Shown: positions 12,141 through 35,204 of the stretch, piece by piece
How the letters are laid out: each line of letters starts with the position of its first letter
How positions within the stretch are numbered: position 1 is the stretch's first letter
NCBI GenBank assembly: GCA_963695545.1
Contig: OY968796.1
Coordinates: 1,696,001-1,760,000, forward strand
Reading direction: 5' to 3'
DNA length: 64,000 bases
Source: Terriglobia bacterium
GTDB taxonomy: Bacteria > Acidobacteriota > Terriglobia > Acidiferrales > UBA7541
Translations under genes and position numbers: made by a program
The notes under the pieces: generated by a model
Told to the model about the DNA's origin: nothing
What the model saw: only the letters and a program-made list of their open reading frames with translations
The model's database searches: none

Positions 12141-13139
12141 TCAGTACGCCCAGTGCATCAAAATTCCGCCGGTCGTATATCCCGCACCGACCGCGACCAG
12201 CAGCACTAAATCTCCCTTGTGCAGCCGGCCCTGTTCAATCGCGTCGTGCAATCCCAGCGGAATGGTGGCCGCGGTGGTGTTTCCGTAGCGGTCGATGTTC
12301 ACCATCACCTTTGAATCTTCCACTCCCAATCGCTGCTGCATCGCGCGGATGATTCGCAAATTTGCCTGGTGCGGCACGATCAGCGTCAGGTCCGCACCGG
12401 TGTAGCCGTTGCGTTCCACCAACTGGCAAGCCACTTCGGCCATCTTGCGCACCGCGTACTTAAAAACCTGCGGCCCTTCCTGATGAACGTAATGCATGCG
12501 CTTATCCACCGTCTCGTGCGAGGGCGGATGCAGCGAGCCGCCGCCCGGCATATAGAGCGACATTCCGCCAGACCCATCGATATCGTGCACGAAATCTATG
12601 ATTCCCTCGCTCTCATTCGTGGCCGGCTCAAGCAGCACGGCGCCCGCGGCATCGCCGAACAGCACGCACGTGGCGCGATCCTGAAAATCGAGGATCGAAG
12701 TCATGGTGTCGCTGCCGATCACCACCACCTTGCGGTGCGTCCCGGCGCCGACGAATTGCGCCCCGACCGTCAGCGCGTATAGAAAGCCCGAGCACGCGCC
12801 CGAGAGATCGAATCCCCAGGCCTTCGTCGCGCCGATGCGGTCCTGCACCAGGCAGGCTGTGGCGGGAAACATCATGTCCGGCGTCACCGTGGCCACGATG
12901 ATCAGGTCGATTTCCTCCGCGCGCGTGCCGGTTTGCTCCAGCAGACGCCGCGCCGCCTCCGTGGCCATGTGCGAAGTCGCCACGCCCGGATCGACCATGT
13001 GCCGCTCGCGGATTCCGGTGCGCTCGCGAATCCAGGCGTCGGTGGTCTGGACCATTTTTTCCAGATCGGCGTTGGTCAGCAGGCGCGGAGGAAGATACGC
13101 GGCCACACCAGTAATCTTGGCGGCAATGCGTTGGGGCAT
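12141..13139 (-). CDS. fabH: Beta-ketoacyl-ACP synthase III
   Basis: GACSGF (Cys), PHQANLRI (His), [10 protein letters not shown] (Asn); GGAG RBS. Confidence 0.95.
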
Positions 13140-13354
13140 CGATCTCTCCGTCAGGCGCCCGCGGCGTCGCGGGTTGAGGAATCGCGATTCTACGCAATCG
13201 CCCCACAGGTGACAAGCGCTTCGCCGGTGCCGCGCCGAGCGCGCATTCGATGCGTGACGATCGATGGAGGCTGCCGCCGCAGGCCGGGCATCGCCGTCGC
13301 TGCGGGCTGGGGTGAGCTTGTGGTGCGTGTTGCGGGAGCGAGATCGCGCCGGGA

Positions 13355-13808
13355 GGGGGGTACACCCCCGGGTATGTTTTGCGTAAGAGCCCGTAAATAC
13401 AGGACTTCGGGGAAAAGAGTGACAAAGAGTGTGCAAGAGATTGATTGCAATGGGTTTGCGATCGTTTATTTTCAATAAGATGCGCACTCTTTTGCATTTG
13501 GTTTGGAATCATTCGTTTACGGCGACACGTTTGTGCACGTGAGCGCGGTTCGGTTGCAGTCAAGCGATGATATTTGGTAGGCCAAGCAAGGCGGGCGGCG
13601 GGCAGGCTCGGGCGGACGCGCGTAAGGTTGTGCTCCGAGATGCGCGCGATTGAGTCGGGCTCGAACGGGAAAATCTTGCGCAGGCGATCCGCCTTCGCCA
13701 AGGCTGTGGCGGACTCCGGCGTCGGGACGTGTCGTTCGAGGTTCATACAAAAGGATAGCACGAGCGGCAATGTGATGTCAATATTATCTTTAAGTTATTA
13801 TTCGAATA
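13355..13808 (-). repeat. Dispersed promoter-bearing element, copy 1 (divergent)
   Basis: TTCGAATA...TTGACA-N18-TATCCT-N5-ATG, core CAAAAGAGTGCGCATCTTATTGAAA, G-run end. Related to the copies at 27.9 and 34.8 kb. Confidence 0.7.
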
Positions 13809-13980
13809 CAATTGGTGCGGGGCATAGCGAAATGATTTAGAGTGAGATGTTCAGAGTCTTGGTCGTCCGTCTTCTAGCGAGTGGGATGCGGGCGAGATGA
13901 GGCATCGCAGGCGAAATATCAGCAAACGTCCCGTCTGTCATCGGTTTTCCCGGTTCAGTTTCCCGAGAGCCCGCGATTGA

Positions 13981-14514
13981 TCAATTTGAAAGGATCGCGT
14001 TTGATACGACAGTGTATCCAGAGAGTCTGAGCGTGCCGCCGGTTTTCTTCCATGTAAATGTCTCGACGGCCGACCCGGCAGCGAACGTCGTGTTGTACTC
14101 ACATACCAACAAAGAGTCGCCGAATCCGATGTCGACCTTGAGGCTCACCAGTGTTGCCGCGTCGGCGTCGCCTAATTTAGCGTGAAGACCCGAAAAGAAT
14201 TTCAGTGGATCTTGGTCTGTCGCGCCGTCGGAGAAACCTTCGTCGGCTTGGCCGAGGATATCTTGATACCGGCCCTCGTTGAGCTCCTCGTGAAACTGTC
14301 GAACCGCAGTGTCGGCAAGATTGCGCCCATTGACGAAAGCGGAGCCGCATTGCCAAACATAGAATATCGAGACGGCTAGCGTGACTGCGAGAGACCACTT
14401 CCACGGGGCCCCAGTTCGCTTTAAACGCACCCCGTACCCGAAGTCCGGGGGCCGACTGCTGCCCAAGGAGGGTGGCGCACCGTTTATGCGCGTGTCGCTA
14501 GGTTCATTCTGCAC
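13981..14514 (-). CDS. Hypothetical exported/membrane protein (DUF4019-like)
   Basis: TM segment followed by AVRQFHEELNEGRY...KLG...YNTTF...ETFTW...LSGY. Confidence 0.7.
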   Translation of the reverse strand: MQNEPSDTRINGAPPSLGSSRPPDFGYGVRLKRTGAPWKWSLAVTLAVSIFYVWQCGSAFVNGRNLADTAVRQFHEELNEGRYQDILGQADEGFSDGATDQDPLKFFSGLHAKLGDADAATLVSLKVDIGFGDSLLVCEYNTTFAAGSAVETFTWKKTGGTLRLSGYTVVSNAILSN

Positions 14515-14587
14515 GCGCGGATGATACCACTAGCGATCTTCACCTTGGAGTAATGTGGCGCGTCCGTCGGGCTGCGGCTTGCGCAGC
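14470..14587 (-). repeat. ~120-bp gene-heading module, copy A
   Basis: Alignable by eye with 15186-15305 and 17414-17533. Confidence 0.9.
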
Positions 14588-14635
14588 AAAGGGTGAGCCG
14601 CTCCTAGCTGGAAGGCGACATCCCACCCGCGGCGA

Positions 14636-15157
14636 TCAGTGTCGCCGAGTTCCGATCCCGATCAGAAGGCCGCCGCTGATGCCGAGCGACTGCTCGTGCC
14701 CTGGCCCAAAGCTGTAGTCGTAAGCCGGTTCGAGAAACCAGCCGAATTTGTGCCTGCCGGAGGGCCAGAACATGAAATCAGCGGCCACTTCAATGCCGGC
14801 CGCATCTGTGGTCGTGCCGTGTTCGGTCGCATGAATCCACTCGGGACCGACACCGGCCATAAACTCCGCTTTCTTGGAGAACGTCCAGGGCTTCTTGAAC
14901 AGAAGATCGGTGTCCCATTCGGTCGAGTCGAGGCCGAAAAGCGGCGTGACGCCCGCTTCGATTTCCAGCCAATTTTCTATCGGCGTGAATTCAACAGCGA
15001 CATCCGGGCCGAAGCTCGCGCCGCCACCGGTGAGACTCTCGCTCGGGGCGGCCCCGAATTCGAGGATTGCGGCAGGGTCGTTATCGGGCGGCTGCGCCAA
15101 GGCGTTTGCGCAGCAGAGAAACAGAGAGGCCAGCAGCACGTATTTTGTTGCGTTCAC
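14636..15157 (-). CDS. Hypothetical secreted small beta-barrel-like protein
   Basis: Signal peptide ending ANALA, alternating aromatic beta-strands; GGAG before GTG 15157 (15232 also possible). Confidence 0.75.
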   Translation of the reverse strand: MNATKYVLLASLFLCCANALAQPPDNDPAAILEFGAAPSESLTGGGASFGPDVAVEFTPIENWLEIEAGVTPLFGLDSTEWDTDLLFKKPWTFSKKAEFMAGVGPEWIHATEHGTTTDAAGIEVAADFMFWPSGRHKFGWFLEPAYDYSFGPGHEQSLGISGGLLIGIGTRRH

Positions 15158-15185
15158 AATCGCTCCGACGCACGCCCGATGTTTG

Positions 15186-15305
15186 ATGGCGGGCGGCGCT
15201 CTTCCGTGAGTATGCGCGTTTTCGATCTCCACGCGCGGATGGTACCACTAGAGATCTTCACCTCGGACTGATGCGGCCAGTCTGTCGGGCTGCGGTTTGC
15301 GTAGC
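15186..15305 (-). repeat. ~120-bp gene-heading module, copy B
   Basis: Same module as 14470-14587. Confidence 0.9.
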
Positions 15306-15341
15306 CCTCAGGTCGAAGGCTGAGTCAGTCGCTAATCTCGG

Positions 15342-16094
15342 TTATTTTTTTGCGTCTTCGTCGCGCCTTCGAGCAGCGGCTGCTTCAGGGTCGGTTATGA
15401 TATCGACCCATTTTGGGTTGGGCGAGGCCTCGACCGCGTAAGTGTCGTGCCAGTTCCACCACTTGTACGGCGCGGTCTGCGGGTAACCCTCTGGCGAATC
15501 CTCCCAAGTCTCCTGACGGCCGAGCGCCGTCATATCGAGATAGCTCCAGATGGTTCCCATGTTCTCGTCGCCGCGGACGTTGATGAAGTAGGTGCGGAAC
15601 ACTTTGTCGCCCTCGCGGATAAACGCATTGTGGCCGTGCCACTGGTCCACGCCGAAGTCCACGTCGAAGCTGTCGGTGATGGTGTACCAAGGCATCTCCC
15701 AGTCCATCCGCGCCTTCAGGCGCGCGATGTCCGCCTGCGGCGCGCGCGAGGCGTAGGCCAGCGTGGTGTCGCGTGCGTTCAGATGGGCCAGGTGGGAGAC
15801 CTGATCGGCGCCCAGGGAACAGCCGCGGCAGGCGTGCTCGGGCCAGCCAAAAACGCCGGGCTCGAAGAAGGCGCGGTAAATGACCAACTGACGGCGGCCC
15901 TCGAACAGGTCGAGCAGGCTTACCTTGCCCTTGGGTCCATCGAACTCGTACTTCTTCTCGACGGCGAGCCACGGCATGCGCCGGCGTTCGGCGGCCAGCG
16001 CGTCACGGGAGTGCATCACGGCCTTCTCTTTCGCGAGGAGCTGCTGGCGCGCAGCCTCCCATTCTTGTTGCGAAACGACGGGTGGAGTTTTCAT
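15342..16094 (-). CDS. DUF899 family thioredoxin-like protein
   Basis: LAAERRRMPW, LLDLFEGRRQL, CRGCS, LDMTALGRQE. Confidence 0.9.
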   Translation of the reverse strand: MKTPPVVSQQEWEAARQQLLAKEKAVMHSRDALAAERRRMPWLAVEKKYEFDGPKGKVSLLDLFEGRRQLVIYRAFFEPGVFGWPEHACRGCSLGADQVSHLAHLNARDTTLAYASRAPQADIARLKARMDWEMPWYTITDSFDVDFGVDQWHGHNAFIREGDKVFRTYFINVRGDENMGTIWSYLDMTALGRQETWEDSPEGYPQTAPYKWWNWHDTYAVEASPNPKWVDIITDPEAAAARRRDEDAKK

Positions 16095-16146
16095 TGCGAG
16101 TGCTCCTTTGGGTGCTCGATGCACTTTGTTTCTCGATCGTTTTTGT

Positions 16147-16374
16147 TTACTTCATCGACGATTGGTTCAATGTTCGAGCAACGTACACAAGAACGATACC
16201 GCTGACGAGCGCGAGGCCGCCGAGAATTGGGGTCGTCAGATTGGGTTTATGCGGTACGAAGGCCGCGAGCATAAATCGTATGGGCGACACAAAGTATATG
16301 AGCGCGATGATTCCCAAGGCGATCAAAATGATACCGACAATCGATGCCACATTGATTAGGAATTGTCGCAGCAT
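16147..16374 (-). CDS. Small two-TM membrane protein
   Basis: 75 aa with two hydrophobic helices (GIILIALGIIAL; PILGGLALVSGIVL). Confidence 0.65.
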   Translation of the reverse strand: MLRQFLINVASIVGIILIALGIIALIYFVSPIRFMLAAFVPHKPNLTTPILGGLALVSGIVLVYVARTLNQSSMK

Positions 16375-16495
16375 GTGTGATCCCTCGGGCGCAGGCTTGG
16401 TCGACCGCGTGATGCGCGGAGCAACAGGAAGAATACTCCAACTGCGATCAATGCGATGGCATTGCAGGGTTCAGGCGAGCCGGGACTTCGGCGAC

Positions 16496-17416
16496 TTATC
16501 GAGCCTTTGTGGAGTGACTTGCTGCGTCGGCTACGTCTTCCAAAGCCCGACGCAACGCGGTAACGGGTTCATTGCCGAATGCCTTGCGCCACTCCGTTTC
16601 TACTGCCTGTATGCGTTCGTCATGCGCGTCCTTTACAGCGACGCCCTTTCGGGTCAGGTAAATAATCTCGCCGCCTTTGCTGCCGCTCAAACGCACGAAG
16701 CCGTGACGGTCCAACGCGGAGATGCCAGCGAAGGGGCCAAGTCCCTGCAGAGGCCGGCCCTCAAGGGGGATGCGCTTGATCACCATCAAACTAAGCGAGA
16801 GCGCAACCGGCGACTTTTTCTCGTAGTTCATCGCGAACGCAACCAGGGCTTGGGAGAGCAACGCCGAGAGCGCGAGATCCGAGACACTGTTTCCGTTCTG
16901 GCGAGGGACCGCTTTCCAGTCGCGTCCGTTCCCACCTGTGATACTCGCGTCCGCGGCCCCATAACTCGCCGGATAATGGGGATGTTCCAGCGGCAGCCTG
17001 GTGGCGATTTGTTCGAGGGAGGCGCGGAGTTTGCTGGTGCGCTCGGCACCGACCTCCGCCCGCCAGCGTTCTTCCGCGGCGTGTTGCAGCGGCGTCCATC
17101 GAGTCGCGACAACGGACCCTCGGGCTGTGAGCCGCACGGTCGCCGGGTCGCGCCCGAGCTTCAATTCTTCGACCCATCCATTTCTGGCCGCCACCGACAT
17201 CCTTGATCGCACGGCCCGCTTCGATAGCCGGACAATCGCCGGCAGCTCCCGGCGATCGGTGCCCGCGACGTTGAGGGCGCGAAGAAGGTTCGCCCACAGG
17301 TCAAGCGACGGCATGCCGTCGCCGCCAGCGCCTTCAAGGATATAGGCTCGCTCGAGTCCGCCGAGTGCGGTCCAAAGCAATGAGGGCAGAGCCGCAGATG
17401 CGACGCTGTTCTCCAT
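16496..17416 (-). CDS. Tandem winged-helix (MarR-like) protein
   Basis: Two repeats of L..LL...L / GWV...VRLTARG / EERWR..G. ATG 17416 follows the repeat module (GTG 17464 also possible). Confidence 0.7.
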   Translation of the reverse strand: MENSVASAALPSLLWTALGGLERAYILEGAGGDGMPSLDLWANLLRALNVAGTDRRELPAIVRLSKRAVRSRMSVAARNGWVEELKLGRDPATVRLTARGSVVATRWTPLQHAAEERWRAEVGAERTSKLRASLEQIATRLPLEHPHYPASYGAADASITGGNGRDWKAVPRQNGNSVSDLALSALLSQALVAFAMNYEKKSPVALSLSLMVIKRIPLEGRPLQGLGPFAGISALDRHGFVRLSGSKGGEIIYLTRKGVAVKDAHDERIQAVETEWRKAFGNEPVTALRRALEDVADAASHSTKAR

Positions 17417-17533
17417 GGCGGGCGGCGCACCGTTTACGCGCGTCTCGCTACGTTCACTCTGCACGCGCGAATGATAGCATTAGCGACTTTCACCTTAGAG
17501 TGATGCAGCGGGTCTCTCGGGCTGCGGTTTGCC
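17414..17533 (-). repeat. ~120-bp gene-heading module, copy C
   Basis: Same module as copies A and B. Confidence 0.9.
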
Positions 17534-17550
17534 CCACTCGCGGGCGGAGT

Positions 17551-18072
17551 TCAAGGTGCGTAGCGAGTGAAGACATAGTCCTGCGCTTTCGCGGGCACGT
17601 GGCAGGGGAAGCATGTTTTGTGCACCGCCTCGCCGGCCGGTTTGCCATCGATGAATTCGGCGTAGCCCCAGCCGCCCGTCGCGGCGTACTTTTTCGAGTC
17701 CTTGACCATGAACTGAACATTCGTGGCGGGCCCGGCAATGAAGGATTGCTCGCGGCCGAAGACTTTGTCGTTCTGAGCCGATGGCACGTATTTCCAAGCC
17801 AGTCTGGCGATGATCGCGCCGTCCGGAAAGGGCAGCGTCCCGTTGCGAAAAGCCGTCATCGCAATCGGGTTCCCGAGCATGGCGCGTATGTCGTCGTAGT
17901 TCGCGGCTTCGTGGGCCACGGAGATCAATTCCCACTGGCGATATCCCGGAGGAATTGTGATTCCGTAGATCGGGGCGGCGTCGTCACCGGCGCCCACCGC
18001 CGTGGATGCCGCCGATGCGATCACGCACGCCGCCGTCGCAACGGCGAGCACGAAGAGAGGGAGTCGTTTCAT
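17551..18072 (-). CDS. Cytochrome P460/c'-beta family protein
   Basis: Signal peptide, PPGYRQW, FPDGAII, MVKDSK, GGWGYAEF, C-terminal CFPCH, DYVFT. Confidence 0.9.
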   Translation of the reverse strand: MKRLPLFVLAVATAACVIASAASTAVGAGDDAAPIYGITIPPGYRQWELISVAHEAANYDDIRAMLGNPIAMTAFRNGTLPFPDGAIIARLAWKYVPSAQNDKVFGREQSFIAGPATNVQFMVKDSKKYAATGGWGYAEFIDGKPAGEAVHKTCFPCHVPAKAQDYVFTRYAP

Positions 18073-18114
18073 GGAATGTCCCGTCCTAATTGATGCCGAC
18101 ATCGGCCGAGCGGC

Positions 18115-19182
18115 TCAAAATTTATCGACGTCGATGATCGCTTGGGCGAAATCCTTCGGAGCTTCTTGCGGCAGATTATGCCCTACGCCGCCGGTGATGA
18201 GGCGATACTCATACTTGCCCGAGAATTTATCGCGATACGCCGTGCTGGGCGCGTGGATTGCGCCGTTGGCGTCGCCTTCCATGGTGATCGTGGGCACGGT
18301 GATGGGAGGAAGCGCGGCCAGCCGCTTTTCCAGGTCGTCATATTTCCGCTCGCCGTCGGCCAGGCCAAGCCGCCAGCGATAGTCGTGCATCACGATGTCA
18401 ACGTGGTCGGGGTTGTTGAAGGACGCCGCGGTGCGCTCGTACGTGGCATCGTCGAAATTCCACTTTGGCGAAGCCTGGTGCCAGATGAACTTATTGAACT
18501 CGTCGAGGTATTTCGCGTAGCCGGCCTTGCCCACTGGGGTAGCGAAATAGTACTGATACCAAAACAGGAACGCGGGCTCGGGTGGCCACGGCGTCTGGTT
18601 GCCCGCCGGGGTGCTGATCAGATAGCCGCCGACGGAAACGATCGCTTTGCAGCGTTCCGGCCACAGCGTTGCCATGACGTCCACCGTGCGCGCGCCCCAG
18701 TCAAAGCCGGCGACGGTAGCTGTCTGGATCTTGAGCGCATCCATCAGAGCGATGATGTCGAGGGCCACGGCAGTCTGCTGGGCGTTCCGCATGGTGTCCG
18801 CGGAAAGAAAGGTCGTCGAGCCGTAGCCGCGCAGATACGGGACGATCACTCGGTAGCCTTTCGACGCCAGGATCGGCGCGACGTCGACGAAGCTGTAAAT
18901 GTCATACGGCCAGCCGTGCAGCAGCACGGCCGCCGGACCATCGCTCGGGCCGGCTTCGGCGTAGCCAATGTTCAGCAGGCCGGCGTTGATCTGCTTGATC
19001 GAATCGAACGATGCGTTCCCGGCCGGCGGACGCGCGGGAACGCCTGTCCGTTCTGCGTCGCTGGCTTCCGCTTTCGCAGAATCGCCGATGAGGAGCTTGG
19101 CGGCGGCAACCGACGCGGCCATCGTGCCCAAAAGACTGCGGCGACTACGGTTGATTTCTTCAGGCTTATCAATCGTGCTCAT
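18115..19182 (-). CDS. Tat-exported alpha/beta hydrolase (epoxide-hydrolase-like)
   Basis: SRRSLL Tat motif, HGWP, GFDWG (Asp nucleophile), GHNLPQE. Confidence 0.9.
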   Translation of the reverse strand: MSTIDKPEEINRSRRSLLGTMAASVAAAKLLIGDSAKAEASDAERTGVPARPPAGNASFDSIKQINAGLLNIGYAEAGPSDGPAAVLLHGWPYDIYSFVDVAPILASKGYRVIVPYLRGYGSTTFLSADTMRNAQQTAVALDIIALMDALKIQTATVAGFDWGARTVDVMATLWPERCKAIVSVGGYLISTPAGNQTPWPPEPAFLFWYQYYFATPVGKAGYAKYLDEFNKFIWHQASPKWNFDDATYERTAASFNNPDHVDIVMHDYRWRLGLADGERKYDDLEKRLAALPPITVPTITMEGDANGAIHAPSTAYRDKFSGKYEYRLITGGVGHNLPQEAPKDFAQAIIDVDKF

Positions 19183-19271
19183 CTGCGTTTCTCCTTGAAT
19201 GGATTTGATCGCGCTCGTTTTCTAATCTCGTTGGTTTGCGGCCGCTCGCAGGACCGACGGAAACCATCGAT

Positions 19272-20621
19272 TTAGCGCAGTGTTCGGAACGCCGCTCGGA
19301 GCTCTTCAGAAAACAGCTTCGGCTGTTCCCAGGCCGCGAAGTGCCCGCCTACCGGGGGCCGGTTGTAATAAATCAGATGTGGATAGGCTTTCTCTGACCA
19401 GCTCTTCGGGGCTTGGTAAATTTCGTCTGGGAAGGCGCTCACGGCGACCGGGATGGTGACGTTCCTGACGTCGAAAAAGCCGCCCTTATATTCCCAATAG
19501 AGACGAGCCGACGAGACCGCGGTATTCGTAAGCCAGTAGAGCGAGACGTTTTCGAGGATGTCGTCTCGCGTCAGGCCTTCGGTCTGGCCGTCGAAGACGC
19601 GTGCGATCAGCGCGTAACTGGCGGAATCGTGATCCAGGATCCACGCCGCGAGACCCACCGGCGAATCCGCGATTCCGTATAGCGTCTGTGGGCGGTTGGC
19701 CATTTCGATGGCGTAGCCAAGGCCGTGCTTATAGAAAAAGGCCAGCTGGTTGTAAGCGCGCAGTTCGTCGGCTGAGAGATCGGGCGGCGGCGGCGCCCCG
19801 GCAAGCGCCGCCTTGTCGATGTCGGCTGGAACAGTGGCCGCCATGTTGGTATGGATTCCGAGCAATCCCGGAGGCGTCTTTAGAGCCAACAGCTCGGTGA
19901 CACAATTTCCCCAATCGCCGCCTTGGGCAACGTACTTCGAGTAGCCAAGCCGCTTCATCAGTACGATCCAGGCGCTTGCGATGCGGTCGGGGTCCCAGCC
20001 GGTCGCGGTCGGCTTGCCTGAAAATCCGTAGCCCGGCAGTGAAGGGATCACCACGTCGAAAGCATCCGATGCATTCCCGCCATATGCCGTTGGATCCGTC
20101 AGCGGCGCGATGACTTTCATTTGCTCGATGATTGAACCGGGCCAGCCGTGCGTGATGATCACCGGAAGTGCATTCGATTCCTTCGAACGCACATGAATGA
20201 AATGAATGTCCAAACCGTCGATGTTGGTTATGAACATCGGCAGGGCGTTCATCCTGGCCTCCACCTTTCGCCAGTCGTAATCGGTCTCCCAATAGTGCGC
20301 GAGCTTCTGCGTGGTCGCGAGCTGCACGCCTTGCGTCGCATCACTGACCAGTTCCCGCTCAGGCCATCGCGTTGCCGCGACGCGCCGGCGGAGATCGACG
20401 ATCTCCGGCTCCGGTACATGGACGTGGAACGGGCGGATGGTTTCGTCTCCAGCGGCTGCCTGTGGCTCGCTGGAGACGGCGCCAGTGACAGGGGCCTTTG
20501 CATCGGCGGACGGGCGGGTGTGGGCGTGACTAGGGTTGGCGAGCAGCGTGGCTCCAGCGGAAAGGCCTGCCATTTTCAAAAGATGGCGACGTGAAATCCC
20601 AAGCGACTCTGACTGTTTCAC
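19272..20621 (-). CDS. Tat-exported epoxide hydrolase (EHN domain)
   Basis: SRRHLL, IRPFHV..., HGWPGS, GGDWG, GGHFAAWEQP. Confidence 0.92.
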   Translation of the reverse strand: MKQSESLGISRRHLLKMAGLSAGATLLANPSHAHTRPSADAKAPVTGAVSSEPQAAAGDETIRPFHVHVPEPEIVDLRRRVAATRWPERELVSDATQGVQLATTQKLAHYWETDYDWRKVEARMNALPMFITNIDGLDIHFIHVRSKESNALPVIITHGWPGSIIEQMKVIAPLTDPTAYGGNASDAFDVVIPSLPGYGFSGKPTATGWDPDRIASAWIVLMKRLGYSKYVAQGGDWGNCVTELLALKTPPGLLGIHTNMAATVPADIDKAALAGAPPPPDLSADELRAYNQLAFFYKHGLGYAIEMANRPQTLYGIADSPVGLAAWILDHDSASYALIARVFDGQTEGLTRDDILENVSLYWLTNTAVSSARLYWEYKGGFFDVRNVTIPVAVSAFPDEIYQAPKSWSEKAYPHLIYYNRPPVGGHFAAWEQPKLFSEELRAAFRTLR

Positions 20622-20951: not shown

Positions 20952-23900
20952 CTAGGCGCGAGTGTCAGCGGGGATCGCGGCTTCCACGAGAGGATTCGGC
21001 ATACTCCGCAAGCGGTCGACAAACAAGCGCACAAGCTCGGCGTCGAATTGTGTTCCGGCGCAGCGCTCGAGCTCCGCTATGGCTTCTTCGGGCGCGCGGC
21101 CCTTCTTGTACGTGCGGTCTGAAGTGATCGTGTCGTAGGCATCGGCGATGGCCACGATGCGCGATCCGAGCGGTATTTCCGAGCCGGTGATGCCGTCGGG
21201 ATAGCCGGAGCCGTCGAAATATTCGTGATGGTGGCCGACGATCTTGCGGATGCGCGCGATGGCGCGCAGCGGCTCAAGAATCTTGGACCCAAACAAAACG
21301 TGCTGCTTCATGGTTTCCCACTCTTCGGCGTTGAGTGGGCCGCTCTTGTTCAAAATGTTTTCAGGAATTCCGACTTTGCCGATATCGTGCAGCAGCGCGC
21401 CCAAACGGATTTCCTCGGTTTCGACGTCGGTCATGGCCAGCGCCTCGCAAAGCAGCGCGGCGTAGGCGGCCACTTTCAGGGAGTGGCCTTGCGTGTAGTG
21501 ATCCTTGGCGTCGATCGCGAGAGCCAGAGAGGTCACTGTATCCAGCACGGCCGGCGGTAGCGCCGCCAGACCCTGCGCCTCCGCATCCGCTCCATCGCCG
21601 TTCTGGTGTGGCGCTGCCTCGGCGCCGTTGGGCGCACCGGCAACCAGCGATTGCGAAAAATGATCCAGGCGCTGGCAAATCTCCTCGAAAGCTTCCGGGC
21701 CGGTCGAAAACAAACGCTTGAGGGTGACGCCCAGATAGGCTTCGAGCACGTCGTGCTTCCACTGCCGGGTTTCGTCCGGATTGCAGGAGTCCGCAGTGGA
21801 CACCGTGTTGCCGCCCTGATGCTTCGAGAGATACATCGAAGCGTCGGCGACCTGGATCAGTTCCTGCGGCGTCGAGCCGTGCTGTGGGAAGCTGGCGATG
21901 CCGAAGCTGGCGGTGATGCTCTTTTCGCGCAGCAGCGGATCGGTGCCGATCCACGAGCACAATTTCGTCGAGAGCTGCCGGCCCTGTTCAATGTTCGTTT
22001 CCGGCATCAACACCACGAATTCGTCTCCGCCGTAGCGCGCCACCACGTCCGAGCGCCGGCAATTCTGTTCGAGGATGCTCCCGACGCGCTGCAGCACCAG
22101 GTCGCCTTCCAGGTGGCCGTGGCTGTCATTGACCATCTTGAATCCATCGAGGTCCAGCAGCAGCAGCGAGAACGGCCGCCCCGCGCGCGTAGCGCGCTTC
22201 CATTCGGCGGAGAGCGCCTCCATGAAGAAGCGGTGCGTCTTTACGCCCGTAAGGCCGTCCGTGATGGCTTGCTCTTTCGTCTTCTGGAACGTCACGGCGT
22301 TGTGCAGCGCGCCGGAGATCAGGTCGGCGAGCGTGCGCAGGAAGCGCTGCTCTTCTTCGTCGAATTCGCACGGCTCGCTCGATTCGACGTAAAGCACGCC
22401 GTGAAGTTGGTCGGCGTACGCCAGCGGCAGCGCGATGGCCGATACGGTTCCTTCGAGCACGGTGGTTCCCGGCGCGTCAGGCGCGGCCGCGTCCTTCACC
22501 ACCAACATTTGCCCCGCGCGCGCCACTTGTCCCACCAGACTGCCGTTGAGCGGCAGGCGCATTCCGAGCGCTCCGTGCCGGCGCCCGGCTTCCGCGGATA
22601 TCTGCACTTCGCGCGCCGAATAATCCAACAGGCCGATGCCGATGTGGTCGTAATTCAGGCCGTCTTGCAGCTCGCCGGAAATCTTTGCGAGCACTTCGTC
22701 CAGATTCAGCGTGGTGATGATGTTCTGCGAGATCTGATTCAACAGCGTCAGGTGGCGCGATTTCGATTGCTCTTCACGGAATAGCCGCGCGTTTTCGATG
22801 GCCACCGCTGCCTGGCTGGCCAAGCCGCGCATCAGTTCCAGGTGATCGGCGTCGAACGCGCGCTCTTCCGAGCTCAGCGCGACCATCACCGCGATGGCTC
22901 GCCCGTAGAGCACCAGCGGCGCCCCGCAGTAGCAACCCATTGGGCCGAGCGGCACAAGTCCCAGTCGGCGCACCTCCGCGGCGAAATTCTCGCGGATTAA
23001 TATCGGCTGGCAGGTGCGCAGCATGTATTCCGCCACGTGGTTTCCCGCGGGCCGCGAGCGTTTCGGCAAGCGCTCTCCGTTTGCGATTTCGAGTTCGTAG
23101 CGAATTGCGCCGCGCGGTTCGTCGTACATCGCGATGAAAAAGTCGTCCGCATTCAGCAGGCGCTTCATCTCCGAATAAATTTTTTCAAACAGCGCTTCCG
23201 TGTCCAGTGTCGAGCTCAGCGCCCGGCCGATCTCGTTCAGCGCGCGCAACTCATCGGTACGCCGCGCCGTTTGCTGCACCAGATAACTATTCTCCACCGC
23301 CATCCCGATCTGGTGCCCCAGCGCCAGCAATAGCCGCAGTTCCGGCGGCGTGAAGCGCCGCGTGTCCGGCGTGCTCAGCAGTAGCAACCCGAACGCATTC
23401 GCTTTGGTCTGCAAGCTGATGCCCACCACCGAGCGCACGCCATGCTGCAGCGCCAGTTGCCGGAAGCGCCGGAACGCGTCCTCGCGCTCGAGCGCCGCCC
23501 AGGAAGCGTCGCGCCCCAAATCGCGGAACACCGCGAGCCCGCCCAATCGCGAAACCAGTTCCACCAGCCGGTCGTCGAGCCCGCCCTCTTGCGCCGCCGC
23601 GCAGAACGATTCGCTGAGGCCCGTCGCGATCACCGAAGTCGGCCCATTCGGATCGCCGTGGTGCAGAAAAAATGCGCCGGCCGGAATGCGCGCCACGTTC
23701 AGAATTCGCTCCAGCGCCTGCCCCAGCATTTTCTGAATTTCTCCGCCGGTGAATCCCGACGTCGCCAGATTCAAATTCGAGAGCGCCAGCATGTTCCGTT
23801 CGACGCGCCTCTTTTCTTCCTCGTACGCGGCCATGATCATCAGCACCGCGCCAAACAGTTCCGGAATCAGCTCGAGCAACCGCAGGTCGCGCCCTTCCGG

Positions 23901-24407
23901 CGTTGCCGGCCCGGCCAGGTGCGTGGCCACCAGCATGCCGCCCCACAGCACGAAGGCCAGCGAAAGCAGCAGGTCGCTCATCGTGTCCTGCTCGCGGCTT
24001 TCCCGCCACAGCACCACGCCCACGGCCACGAAGATCACGGCGATTCCGTAAACTGGCGAAATCGCGATGGCTTTTGTTTGGTAGGCAATCACCCACGCCG
24101 CGCACAACGCCGCAGTCGCCAGCAGCGTGCGCGTCCACGGCCGCTGTTTCGCGTAGAGTTGCGCCGCGCAGAAAAACAGCAGCCCCGCGCCCGCCAGCAG
24201 CCATTGGTTAATCGCCGCTTGCCAGGGCGCCACGATCATCCAGGTCTCAAGCGCCGGGCTTAAATCGTGCAGCGCCACGAAGCCCCACGCCCCGGCCCAG
24301 AACAGCAAATATTGCTGCCGCTTCATGTCGTGGATGTAGGAGAACAATCCGGCCGCGAACGCGCCTGTGATGAACAGCCCTATCGCAACGATGGGATCGT
24401 GTGTCAT
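20952..24407 (-). CDS. Membrane sensor with GAF domains, GGDEF diguanylate cyclase and HD-GYP phosphodiesterase
   Basis: About 7 N-terminal TMs, three GAF-like repeats, RRSDVVARYGGDEF (I-site and active site), HDIGK and HHEYFDGSGYP. Confidence 0.93.
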   Translation of the reverse strand: MTHDPIVAIGLFITGAFAAGLFSYIHDMKRQQYLLFWAGAWGFVALHDLSPALETWMIVAPWQAAINQWLLAGAGLLFFCAAQLYAKQRPWTRTLLATAALCAAWVIAYQTKAIAISPVYGIAVIFVAVGVVLWRESREQDTMSDLLLSLAFVLWGGMLVATHLAGPATPEGRDLRLLELIPELFGAVLMIMAAYEEEKRRVERNMLALSNLNLATSGFTGGEIQKMLGQALERILNVARIPAGAFFLHHGDPNGPTSVIATGLSESFCAAAQEGGLDDRLVELVSRLGGLAVFRDLGRDASWAALEREDAFRRFRQLALQHGVRSVVGISLQTKANAFGLLLLSTPDTRRFTPPELRLLLALGHQIGMAVENSYLVQQTARRTDELRALNEIGRALSSTLDTEALFEKIYSEMKRLLNADDFFIAMYDEPRGAIRYELEIANGERLPKRSRPAGNHVAEYMLRTCQPILIRENFAAEVRRLGLVPLGPMGCYCGAPLVLYGRAIAVMVALSSEERAFDADHLELMRGLASQAAVAIENARLFREEQSKSRHLTLLNQISQNIITTLNLDEVLAKISGELQDGLNYDHIGIGLLDYSAREVQISAEAGRRHGALGMRLPLNGSLVGQVARAGQMLVVKDAAAPDAPGTTVLEGTVSAIALPLAYADQLHGVLYVESSEPCEFDEEEQRFLRTLADLISGALHNAVTFQKTKEQAITDGLTGVKTHRFFMEALSAEWKRATRAGRPFSLLLLDLDGFKMVNDSHGHLEGDLVLQRVGSILEQNCRRSDVVARYGGDEFVVLMPETNIEQGRQLSTKLCSWIGTDPLLREKSITASFGIASFPQHGSTPQELIQVADASMYLSKHQGGNTVSTADSCNPDETRQWKHDVLEAYLGVTLKRLFSTGPEAFEEICQRLDHFSQSLVAGAPNGAEAAPHQNGDGADAEAQGLAALPPAVLDTVTSLALAIDAKDHYTQGHSLKVAAYAALLCEALAMTDVETEEIRLGALLHDIGKVGIPENILNKSGPLNAEEWETMKQHVLFGSKILEPLRAIARIRKIVGHHHEYFDGSGYPDGITGSEIPLGSRIVAIADAYDTITSDRTYKKGRAPEEAIAELERCAGTQFDAELVRLFVDRLRSMPNPLVEAAIPADTRA

Positions 24408-24603
24408 CTCAACCGGCAATCCACTTCCTGGCGGGAGCCAGACCAAGCGCACTCTTCCTTACGCCGCCGGAGTACGGGGCGGGGTGCCGTGGACCGGTTT
24501 GCGGTGCGCTCGACATGTACTGTGGTTCGGCAGAGGCTGACAGTCGCGGGGTGCGCTTCTCCCCGCTCAATTCGCCGTGTCAATACTTCTGCACTATCCC
24601 ACG

Positions 24604-27910: not shown

Positions 27911-28249
27911 TGTGGATATCATTTCGAATACTTAAATAGTAATTGACAGTGATTAGCACTTCTGTTAAGCTTCTGCATGTTCGCCCACAATCCATTCGAA
28001 TCGTTGCCCAGCCTCACTTTTCCCGGCCTCGCCCCGGCATTCGCGCGCTCCCGTATGCACACGAAGCCGCTTTTTTCGCCCCAACAAGCTCTTTCGTTTC
28101 AATCGAATCCGCACTCTTTCAAAAGAGTGCGCATCTCATTGAAAAAAGACGATATCAACGTGCCTGTTTTCACACTCATCCGCACTCTTTCCCTGCATTC
28201 CCTTTGCAATCATCATTTTACGTATTTGGTACGGGGGGTATATAGGGGT
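27911..28249 (+). repeat. Dispersed promoter-bearing element, copy 2
   Basis: TGTGGATA..TTTCGAATACTT..TTGACA-N17-TAAGCT-N5-ATGTTCGCCC; alignable with 34821-35204. Confidence 0.9.
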
Positions 28250-34820: not shown

Positions 34821-35204
34821 TGTGGAAACTGTTTCGAATACTTATTTATTACTTGACACTATAATTTAATTCTGCTATCCTTCCGCATGTTCGCCCGCAA
34901 TCCATTCGAATGGTTGCCCTCCCTGACTTTTCCCGGCCTCGCCCCAGCATTTGCGCGCATCCGTTTGCACCCGAAACCGCTTTCCTCGCCCCGACAAATC
35001 CTTGATTTTCAAAAACATCCGCACTCTTATGTCAAAAAGCGCCCCTCTAAAGCACCTATTTTCAGTCAATTGCAAAAGAGTGCGCATCTCATTGAAACTA
35101 TTAATTATCAAGTGCCCTGTTTTCACATTCATCCGCACTCTTTCCCTGCAAACCCTTTGATTACATCATTTTACACTTTTGGTACCGGGGGTGGATGGAG
35201 GGGT
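34821..35204 (+). repeat. Dispersed promoter-bearing element, copy 3
   Basis: TGTGGAAA..TTTCGAATACTT..TTGACA-N17-TATCCT-N5-ATGTTCGCCC; same core and G-run end as copy 2. Confidence 0.9.

Follow-up and report, generated by a model that had tools for sequence, protein, structure and literature searches.

The closest described relatives of the system reported here are the REPtrons, in which the gene of a RAYT (REP-associated tyrosine transposase) is accompanied by inverted repetitive extragenic palindromes (REPs). The accessible part of the RAYT literature reports cleavage and recombination by these enzymes in vitro and regards their genes as domesticated and immobile. RAYT-like genes lying between terminal inverted repeats were described from an Acidobacteria group as TIRtrons (TIRYT; Di Nocera et al., 2013, PMC3733652), and GTGG-rich marginal arcs were reported for RAYT subclass 2.2 (Quentin et al., 2018, 10.1101/279083); in their available sections, both accounts cover genes and flanking repeats only, without mobility, termini, promoter, target rule or cargo. 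Here we analyse a 64,000-nt stretch of contig OY968796.1 from a Terriglobia bacterium (assembly GCA_963695545.1; genome G000), called the window below, in which three direct repeats of one module head unrelated genes. This module is probably the promoter-bearing long arm of a mobile RAYT element with a Y1-HUH enzyme, and the best explanation overall, to which we assign a probability of roughly 0.7, is that this element builds rows of cargo served by its promoters.

With the REPtrons, as far as the consulted sections of the published descriptions go (PMC3333891, PMC8266576, PMC5581495), the element has in common the enzyme family, the inverted hairpins with a GTGG-type foot and junctions at dinucleotides linked to the guide. 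It differs from them in its several recent copies per genome, in a second, fixed terminus outside each REP, and in an outward promoter with a start codon and the cassette arrays that go with it; the single-copy gene and the lack of unit transposition by which RAYTs are recognised are not what is seen here. The enzyme probably belongs to the Acidobacteria TIRYT (PMC3733652) or to subclass 2.2 with its GTGG-rich margins (10.1101/279083), so far as the accessible text of these papers allows comparison. Like the former, it is encoded between terminal inverted repeats; unlike most, not all, of the TIRYT members in that account, its arms showed no GGGGWSAS motif, which is present in a neighbouring second element. 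Most subscription papers and ISfinder lay outside the literature search, in which no account of mobility, promoter or arrays turned up for this element; these arms may appear in Figure 9 and in Additional files 4 and 5 of PMC3733652, and two supplements of PMC6006769 held no hit. What would be new is a mobile, promoter-bearing RAYT element that builds cassette arrays; the RAYT enzyme family and the REP hairpins are known.

A profile search of the genome returned 12 strong copies of the module, with E-values of 1e-23 or better, and four weaker ones. Six of the profile copies make up three intact elements elsewhere in G000, each a Y1_Tnp gene inside a divergent module pair, which supplies the linked HUH/RAYT enzyme that the sequence-only reading of the window had proposed to look for. 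In the paired copies a REP hairpin with a GTGG foot precedes the module, the module ends at GCCACCCGCC rather than at the GCGCCRCCC first suggested, and the copies diverge beyond this point. The element almost certainly spans 0.8-0.9 kb and has the RAYT gene at its centre, a REP on either side of the gene, a short arm outside one REP and, outside the other, a long arm that bears the outward promoter and a putatively leaderless start codon. Each arm runs out to a terminus, and the sharp ends at GCCACCCGC(C) are inverted copies of one terminus. IS200/IS605 insertion sequences, in contrast, have two different ends that are processed on one strand. Among 107 distinct copies, the succession of REP, spacer and terminus could be resolved on 78 left and 70 right sides, and an extended -10 was found in 31 left arms, 40-56 nt inside the terminus, and in 6 right arms. 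The REP foot is GTGG in G000 and GTGC in many relatives; REPs are not present in high copy number, an exact pattern of the REP core occurring 8-12 times in 4.2 Mb. For the RAYT gene there is no more than a hint of an inward -10, placed at 24-25 nt in 34 of 192 arms and at 33 nt in 30. At an identical point of the REP stem, an insertion sequence of IS110-like appearance is found in L009, L015, L029, L041, L068, L322 and L330, and in L322 it lies within both REPs of one element.

The enzyme scores 109 and 97.5 bits with the RAYT family model NF047646 (cut-off 80), and an assignment to the IS200/IS605 TnpA family was rejected at 44.7 bits with NF033573, below the cut-off of 55. Of 127 homolog copies, 124 have the HUH motif and 121 the Y-x-H-x-NP motif, and the best solved structural relative is 4ER8. 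One of the RAYT genes of G000 lies at C1:1475752-1476279. Among 61 genomes, 20 contain relatives of the protein; relatives were also collected at 75 loci, almost all of them in Acidobacteriota records, and no match to plasmids was obtained at E 1e-25. The short-arm pattern matched in 9 of 151 genomes across the phylum, several of them probably by chance; 14 viral pattern hits, with no RAYT and no evident hairpin, were likewise taken as chance. Two further RAYT-family genes above the NF047646 cut-off belong to another clade (G000 C1:1387480-1387863 and 1424854-1425237).

Genome comparison places recent copies of the element at separate sites, joined there without target duplication. The RAYT copies of G000 number three, at 85-91% DNA identity, and G005 has up to 12 matches, some of them fragments; G001 carries a 752-bp stretch twice, on different contigs and at 100% identity, and G005 has 922-bp units that are 97-98% identical with differing flanks. 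A target duplication is absent in 81 of the 91 two-ended units and measures 2-3 nt in 10, and termini are joined into the interiors of genes, including another RAYT copy and RHS cores.

The junctions themselves follow a rule. We collected 482 distinct junctions, of which 47 are testable, having a second, unjoined copy of the flank that is at least 88% identical and matches from the first base. The join lies at G^C or C^C in 42 of these 47, either of two registers being allowed, as against 6-19 of 47 in controls shifted by 2-10 bases; the same holds in 21 of the 23 junctions whose unjoined copy lies outside any arm and in 7 of the 9 pairs added after the rule was first noticed. Unambiguous junctions divide by the REP foot, with 14 at G^C and 2 at C^C for GTGC, and 0 and 5, respectively, for GTGG (Fisher p = 0.001). 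In E. coli, the mapped cleavage sites are C^T, at distances of up to >400 nt from the REP (PMC3333891), and in the part of PMC8266576 available to us, changing GTAG to GTGG moved cleavage to CC. Given the G^C/C^C rule, its dependence on the foot and this guide chemistry, we infer that the junctions were probably made by the RAYT; hundreds of sharp junctions, with a dinucleotide that tracks the REP foot, lend natural-sequence support to the guide model. Short DNA pieces stacked on each other, each ending in a terminus and some derived from arms of related elements, occur in L040 (7225-7645), L094 and L080; such stacks are a record of repeated joining at one end.

In the window, the array and its surroundings are made up of the following features:

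12141..13139, minus strand: fabH, conserved flank of the variable site
13295..13939, minus strand: second repeat element closing the island, with the TIRYT-type end GACAGACGGGACGTTT, not part of the module
13981..14466, minus strand: cargo 1, DUF4019-like membrane-anchored protein, 177 amino acids (aa) from the arm GTG in frame
14467..14630, minus strand: unit 1, RAYT-deleted derivative of the whole element
14630-14588, minus strand: short-end remnant of unit 1 with half a REP hairpin
14529-14467, minus strand: within the long arm of unit 1, extended -10 (14529-14521), GTG (14514) and terminus GCCACCCTCC (14476-14467)
14631..15187, minus strand: cargo 2, beta-barrel-like exported protein, 173 aa, own start of GGAG and GTG at 15157
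15188..15332, minus strand: unit 2, collapsed element, its short-end remnant (15332-15305) joined straight to the long arm
15247-15188, minus strand: within the long arm of unit 2, -10 (15247-15239), GTG (15232) and terminus (15197-15188)
15333..17416, minus strand: cargo 3, three genes
16094-15342, minus strand: DUF899 gene of cargo 3
16374-16147, minus strand: membrane open reading frame (ORF) of cargo 3, 75 aa
17416-16496, minus strand: winged-helix-like protein of cargo 3, its ATG right at the junction
17417..17533, minus strand: unit 3, long arm only, with -10 (17479-17471), GTG (17464) and terminus (17426-17417)
17551..20621, minus strand: cytochrome P460, alpha/beta hydrolase and epoxide hydrolase genes, within the strain-variable island and without a heading arm
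20952-24452: 1166-aa ORF, the other conserved flank of the variable site

The three direct repeats (14470-14587, 15186-15305 and 17414-17533; repeat family D3) lie where the sequence-only reading had placed them and are 73-82% identical to each other. All three are bridged with zero differences by short-read contigs (X3 record 19, X4 records 27 and 29; one study, possibly the source sample), and an assembly artefact is therefore unlikely. Units 1 and 2 run upstream, from 14630 and 15332 onward, into the reverse complement of the element's short end (local alignment p = 0.001 and 0.0005), which identifies them as whole elements minus the enzyme gene; no short-end remnant was detected by local alignment for unit 3 (p = 0.49). 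Units 1 and 2 are thereby short non-coding derivatives with both inverted ends, as in miniature inverted-repeat transposable elements (MITEs), and unit 3 has one end only. The possibility, raised beforehand, that the modules are scattered MITEs with no relation to gene starts is borne out as to their MITE-like form and fails as to gene starts, to which they are tied. A GCGCGT..ACGCGC stem, proposed as part of every module, folds in the three window copies and two others and fails in 7 of the 12 genome copies, and a conserved stem was rejected with only 5 of 12 folding. The array in the window is probably an old one without an enzyme, its three units being derived from different lineages of the element. 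Units with and without the RAYT gene share arms inside one array in L224.

The cargos are unrelated, each with its own promoter, as had been noticed from the sequence; the expected single gene per module does not hold for cargo 3. For cargo 1, the Atlas lead (score 0.97) carries DUF4019 on 33% of its members, and distant homologs occur in 11 of 150 other genomes. The 173-aa form of cargo 2 is present in the Atlas, where clusters of similar appearance measure 171-179 aa. About 5 nt separate the stop of cargo 2 from unit 1, and about 9 nt the last stop of cargo 3 from unit 2. The sequence GACAGACGGGACGTTT, earlier taken for the end of the array, does sit at 13939-13924 and belongs to the different repeat element listed above. 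The GC content does not set the island apart from its surroundings, and Rfam and tRNA scans of the window found two tRNAs only, both distant from the array.

Cargo had been expected to differ between relatives, and the window site is indeed variable: the gap from fabH to the next conserved gene is just 0.1-0.2 kb in three of five congeners, is filled in G003 by 8.4 kb of other DNA that includes no arm, and holds in G004 a single arm and, behind it and co-oriented, a different gene of 267 aa. The single fixed site of capture that had been imagined is contradicted by arms in several clusters of this genome and at many places in relatives.

The long arm carries what is probably a working promoter, predicted from its motif and position. 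The extended -10 followed by N6-GTG on the minus strand was recovered as TGnTAnnnT-N6-GTG at 14529-14512, 15247-15230 and 17479-17462, and the GTG opens ORFs of 177, 198 and 322 aa in frame with the cargo, as read initially. Of 38 arms taken without regard to this feature, 25 have a start codon at a distance of exactly 6 nt downstream of the -10, with 16 different spacers between the two, and ATG and TTG occur besides GTG. Gene starts across the genome, a few arms included, also peak at this spacing, with 20 at 6 nt, 8-13 at 7-9 nt and at 20 nt, and 1-5 elsewhere. Among 15 long arms of G000, the motif is intact in 6, every one of which faces a sense gene, and 8 of the 9 decayed ones face antisense genes (p = 0.0014). 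At L003 (G000 C1:2958869-2962655), three tandem arms without REPs, with a decayed -10 and no GTG, each point toward the 3' end of an opposed gene.

That an in-frame start is regenerated for every newcomer, as initially proposed, was abandoned: frames 0, 1 and 2 are taken by 19, 8 and 14 junctions with the window copies included and by 21, 11 and 20 outside the window (p = 0.18), and cargo 2 has its own GGAG and GTG. Cargos without an own start are in frame in 16 of 34 (p = 0.07). A start led by a Shine-Dalgarno sequence was looked for without success in cargos 1 and 3 (for cargo 1, behind the junction), and the three in-frame cases out of three in the window may reflect chance or the retention of these two cargos.

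Genomes and metagenomes repeatedly show unit, cargo and unit in a row, some with the enzyme gene and some lacking it (L039, L317, L318, L190, L194, L198, L224 and L321), and by their layout these are recurrent arrays of co-oriented units with one or few genes between. Neighbouring promoter arms 0.3-3.5 kb apart are co-oriented in 25 of 25 pairs, none being opposite. Fifty-one cassettes are bounded by both termini, 35 with one called gene and 7 with none, and 51 of their 57 genes read away from the promoter arm, many ending <30 nt from the next unit. A Pfam family was assigned to 12 of these genes and to none of the other 45; SMI1/KNR4, Ntox44, PIN and an antitoxin are represented, as is AsnA, which is probably a native neighbour. 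The cargo of several genomes shares a small ORF of about 65-80 aa with a beginning like 'MSYFYEIRS..' (L082, L310, L312, L317, L318 and L319). RHS core motifs are found in 19 of 75 RAYT loci and in 3 of 80 shorter metagenome loci, against 0.25% of random windows in a control from one genome only. The three RHS core motifs of G000 lie between element termini in two cases and 7.5 kb from an element in the third. At L002 (G000 C1:1476462-1478581), the cargo between two RAYT elements starts and stops inside an RHS core and holds two of the three genome motifs.

Co-oriented cassettes, mostly of a single gene and mostly without a Pfam family, are also what an integron, or an integron-like fixed site with a tyrosine recombinase, would leave behind. 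Against such an origin, no IntI is found in the genome (94% complete), where TIGR02249 reaches 79 bits at best with a cut-off of 265, no RYYYAAC..GTTRRRY attC core pair lies in 13900-17600, and the repeat is the arm of a RAYT gene that gives each cassette its own promoter; we consider this origin exceedingly improbable. The lack of attC and integrase, and a non-integron build-up of unrelated genes each with its own promoter, had both been part of the sequence-only reading and are sustained.

Whether cargo travels with the element bears on a second alternative, that of a hot spot without capture, in which foreign genes came by other routes, the element and its MITEs inserted separately in dispensable islands, RAYT deletions trimmed the flanks, and copies were kept where the promoter faced a useful gene. 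Such a history would suit the unrelated mobile DNA without an arm that G003 has at the same intergenic site, the limited likeness of the three window units, the naturally occurring rows of small co-oriented genes in RHS and immunity regions, and the lack of a circle in the contigs of four runs. It does not fit the near-identical units that flank cargo in direct orientation (L080, 99% over 809 bp; L039), nor the two RHS-core motifs of G000 that are cut at element termini, nor flank DNA that has moved. The best case of the last is a piece of 154 bp, 395 nt outside one copy, whose second occurrence (99%) is cut at G^C and stands behind a terminus; this terminus adjoins a copy of 97% identity that lies on the same contig at a distance of 2.66 Mb (L136/L128). 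A 503-bp stretch of an RHS gene in G005 is found again, at 98.6%, about 27 kb away, where it follows a promoter arm (L047, L037), a case limited by the fact that RHS cores also duplicate by other means. An all-against-all comparison of 206 cargo starts gave no identical cassette in two arrays, the matches being mostly duplicates and nested arms; a few homologous cargos have different junctions (L058/L187; L198/L313/L078). On balance we find the hot spot unlikely, and travel of cargo with the element rather likely.

A third possibility is that the RAYT makes the primary junctions and ordinary homologous recombination among its scattered copies then lets arrays grow and shuffle. There are exact duplications with an arm inside them (L171, 642 bp, 100%), intact G000 elements have long arms at both ends, suggesting exchange between ends, and units of IS26 can also be incorporated by recombination according to the accessible text of PMC4894685. 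The stacks of terminus-ended short pieces (as in L040), and termini joined in the middle of RAYT or RHS genes, offer no homology, however, and this route is very unlikely to account for the arrays.

Several observations weigh against the mobile, array-building RAYT element that we favour. The start codon of the arm is not enriched in frame with cargo; long left arms beside RAYT genes face sense genes in 32 cases and antisense genes in 9, with no call in 7; L002 and L038 each have one promoter arm antisense to the cargo; and many left arms are short and promoterless, mostly in Acidobacteriaceae/Terriglobales records. Genes were called with our own dicodon model. Of the junctions, only 47 of 482 are testable, 24 of them inside other arms, with 5 misfits and two registers allowed, and the p-values overstate significance, as kinship among the elements makes them non-independent. 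In other genomes, the 400 nt upstream of matches to cargos 1 and 3 contain no terminus, a comparison that involves distant homologs and, for cargo 3, a stretch inside the gene. Pairing the flanks of 91 units gave no precise empty allele, with two DNA-level self-matches only, a noisy protein-level output and no close strains in the set, and contigs of four runs, which drop rare forms, held no circle and no excision joint at the modules; co-transport of cargo is for this reason something we infer, and adjacent deletion after separate insertions gives the same junctions.

If a mobile RAYT element does build these arrays, its two termini would pair on single-stranded DNA, and the RAYT would use four bases of the REP foot as a guide, GTGC directing it to G^C and GTGG to C^C. 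It would cut twice, at the terminus and at a G^C or C^C some way off, and exchange strands. A distant site beyond the end would produce an adjacent deletion, trimming the flank toward a gene start or stop, while one on the other side would release a circle of element plus flank that could rejoin at the terminus of another copy. Distant cleavage that sequesters flanking genes has been speculated on before (PMC3333891), and the consulted part of a study in E. coli reports that no circular RAYT DNA was found (10.1101/2024.07.17.603846). The outcome would be rows of element, cargo and element, like the translocatable units of IS26; recombination between the two palindromic REPs may drop the RAYT gene and leave short units as in the window. 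Each unit would transcribe the cargo behind it, and in-frame junctions, such as those of cargos 1 and 3, would in addition receive translation from the start codon at the predicted +1. A fuller reading, in which an Acidobacteriota capture-and-expression system consists of a unit-transposing RAYT, a dinucleotide chosen by the foot, and circle-borne, trimmed flank genes stacked in arrays with a leaderless promoter each, has in our view slightly better than even odds. It would be, with the same guarded preference, the single-strand-transposase counterpart of the integron, and the genes carried may, by a similarly narrow preference, often be RHS toxin tips, immunity and envelope genes.

IS26 has an IS6-family DDE transposase and makes a target duplication; here, by contrast, a Y1-HUH single-strand enzyme acts without duplication, and most units have lost the enzyme gene. 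Alike are the direct-oriented copies that share the cargo between them and the unit of element plus flank, as described in the sections consulted of PMC4894685. ISEcp1/ISPme1 modules and ISCR also drive mobilised adjacent genes from a complete outward promoter, so far as the available text of PMC9330008 describes them; they employ other enzymes, whereas here both ends act and a start codon lies at the predicted +1. Integrons and the Bacteroidales rAID-1 immunity arrays (10.1101/471110, in its accessible part) likewise hold co-oriented small genes, often without assigned function or immunity-like, between repeats, yet have a tyrosine recombinase at the array head, while the repeat here is a transposon remnant with its own promoter. 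Should cargo indeed travel, a soil phylum of high abundance would possess one more way of assembling expressed gene-cassette arrays, one that integron searches would miss. The small single-strand enzyme, with its swappable guide, and the portable promoter could also be put to use in the genetics of Acidobacteria.

The second element that closes the island is about 650 bp long and has its own -10 with an ATG about 5 nt downstream. Other copies lie at G000 C1:1200733-1201286, 1473929-1474544 and 1205245-1205461; the long copies adjoin two RAYT loci of this genome as well as the window array, and BLAST matches its distal 140 bp to about 50 places in the genome. At 27911-28248 and 34821-35201, the window has a longer composite repeat (D4, D5, D17) in two copies, with 34 bp in common with the second element. 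The window also contains two tandem paralog pairs, at 11117-11416/11657-11956 (81% identical) and 51172-51471/51950-52249 (70%), the former encoding two 130-aa proteins, of which the tested one has no Pfam family.

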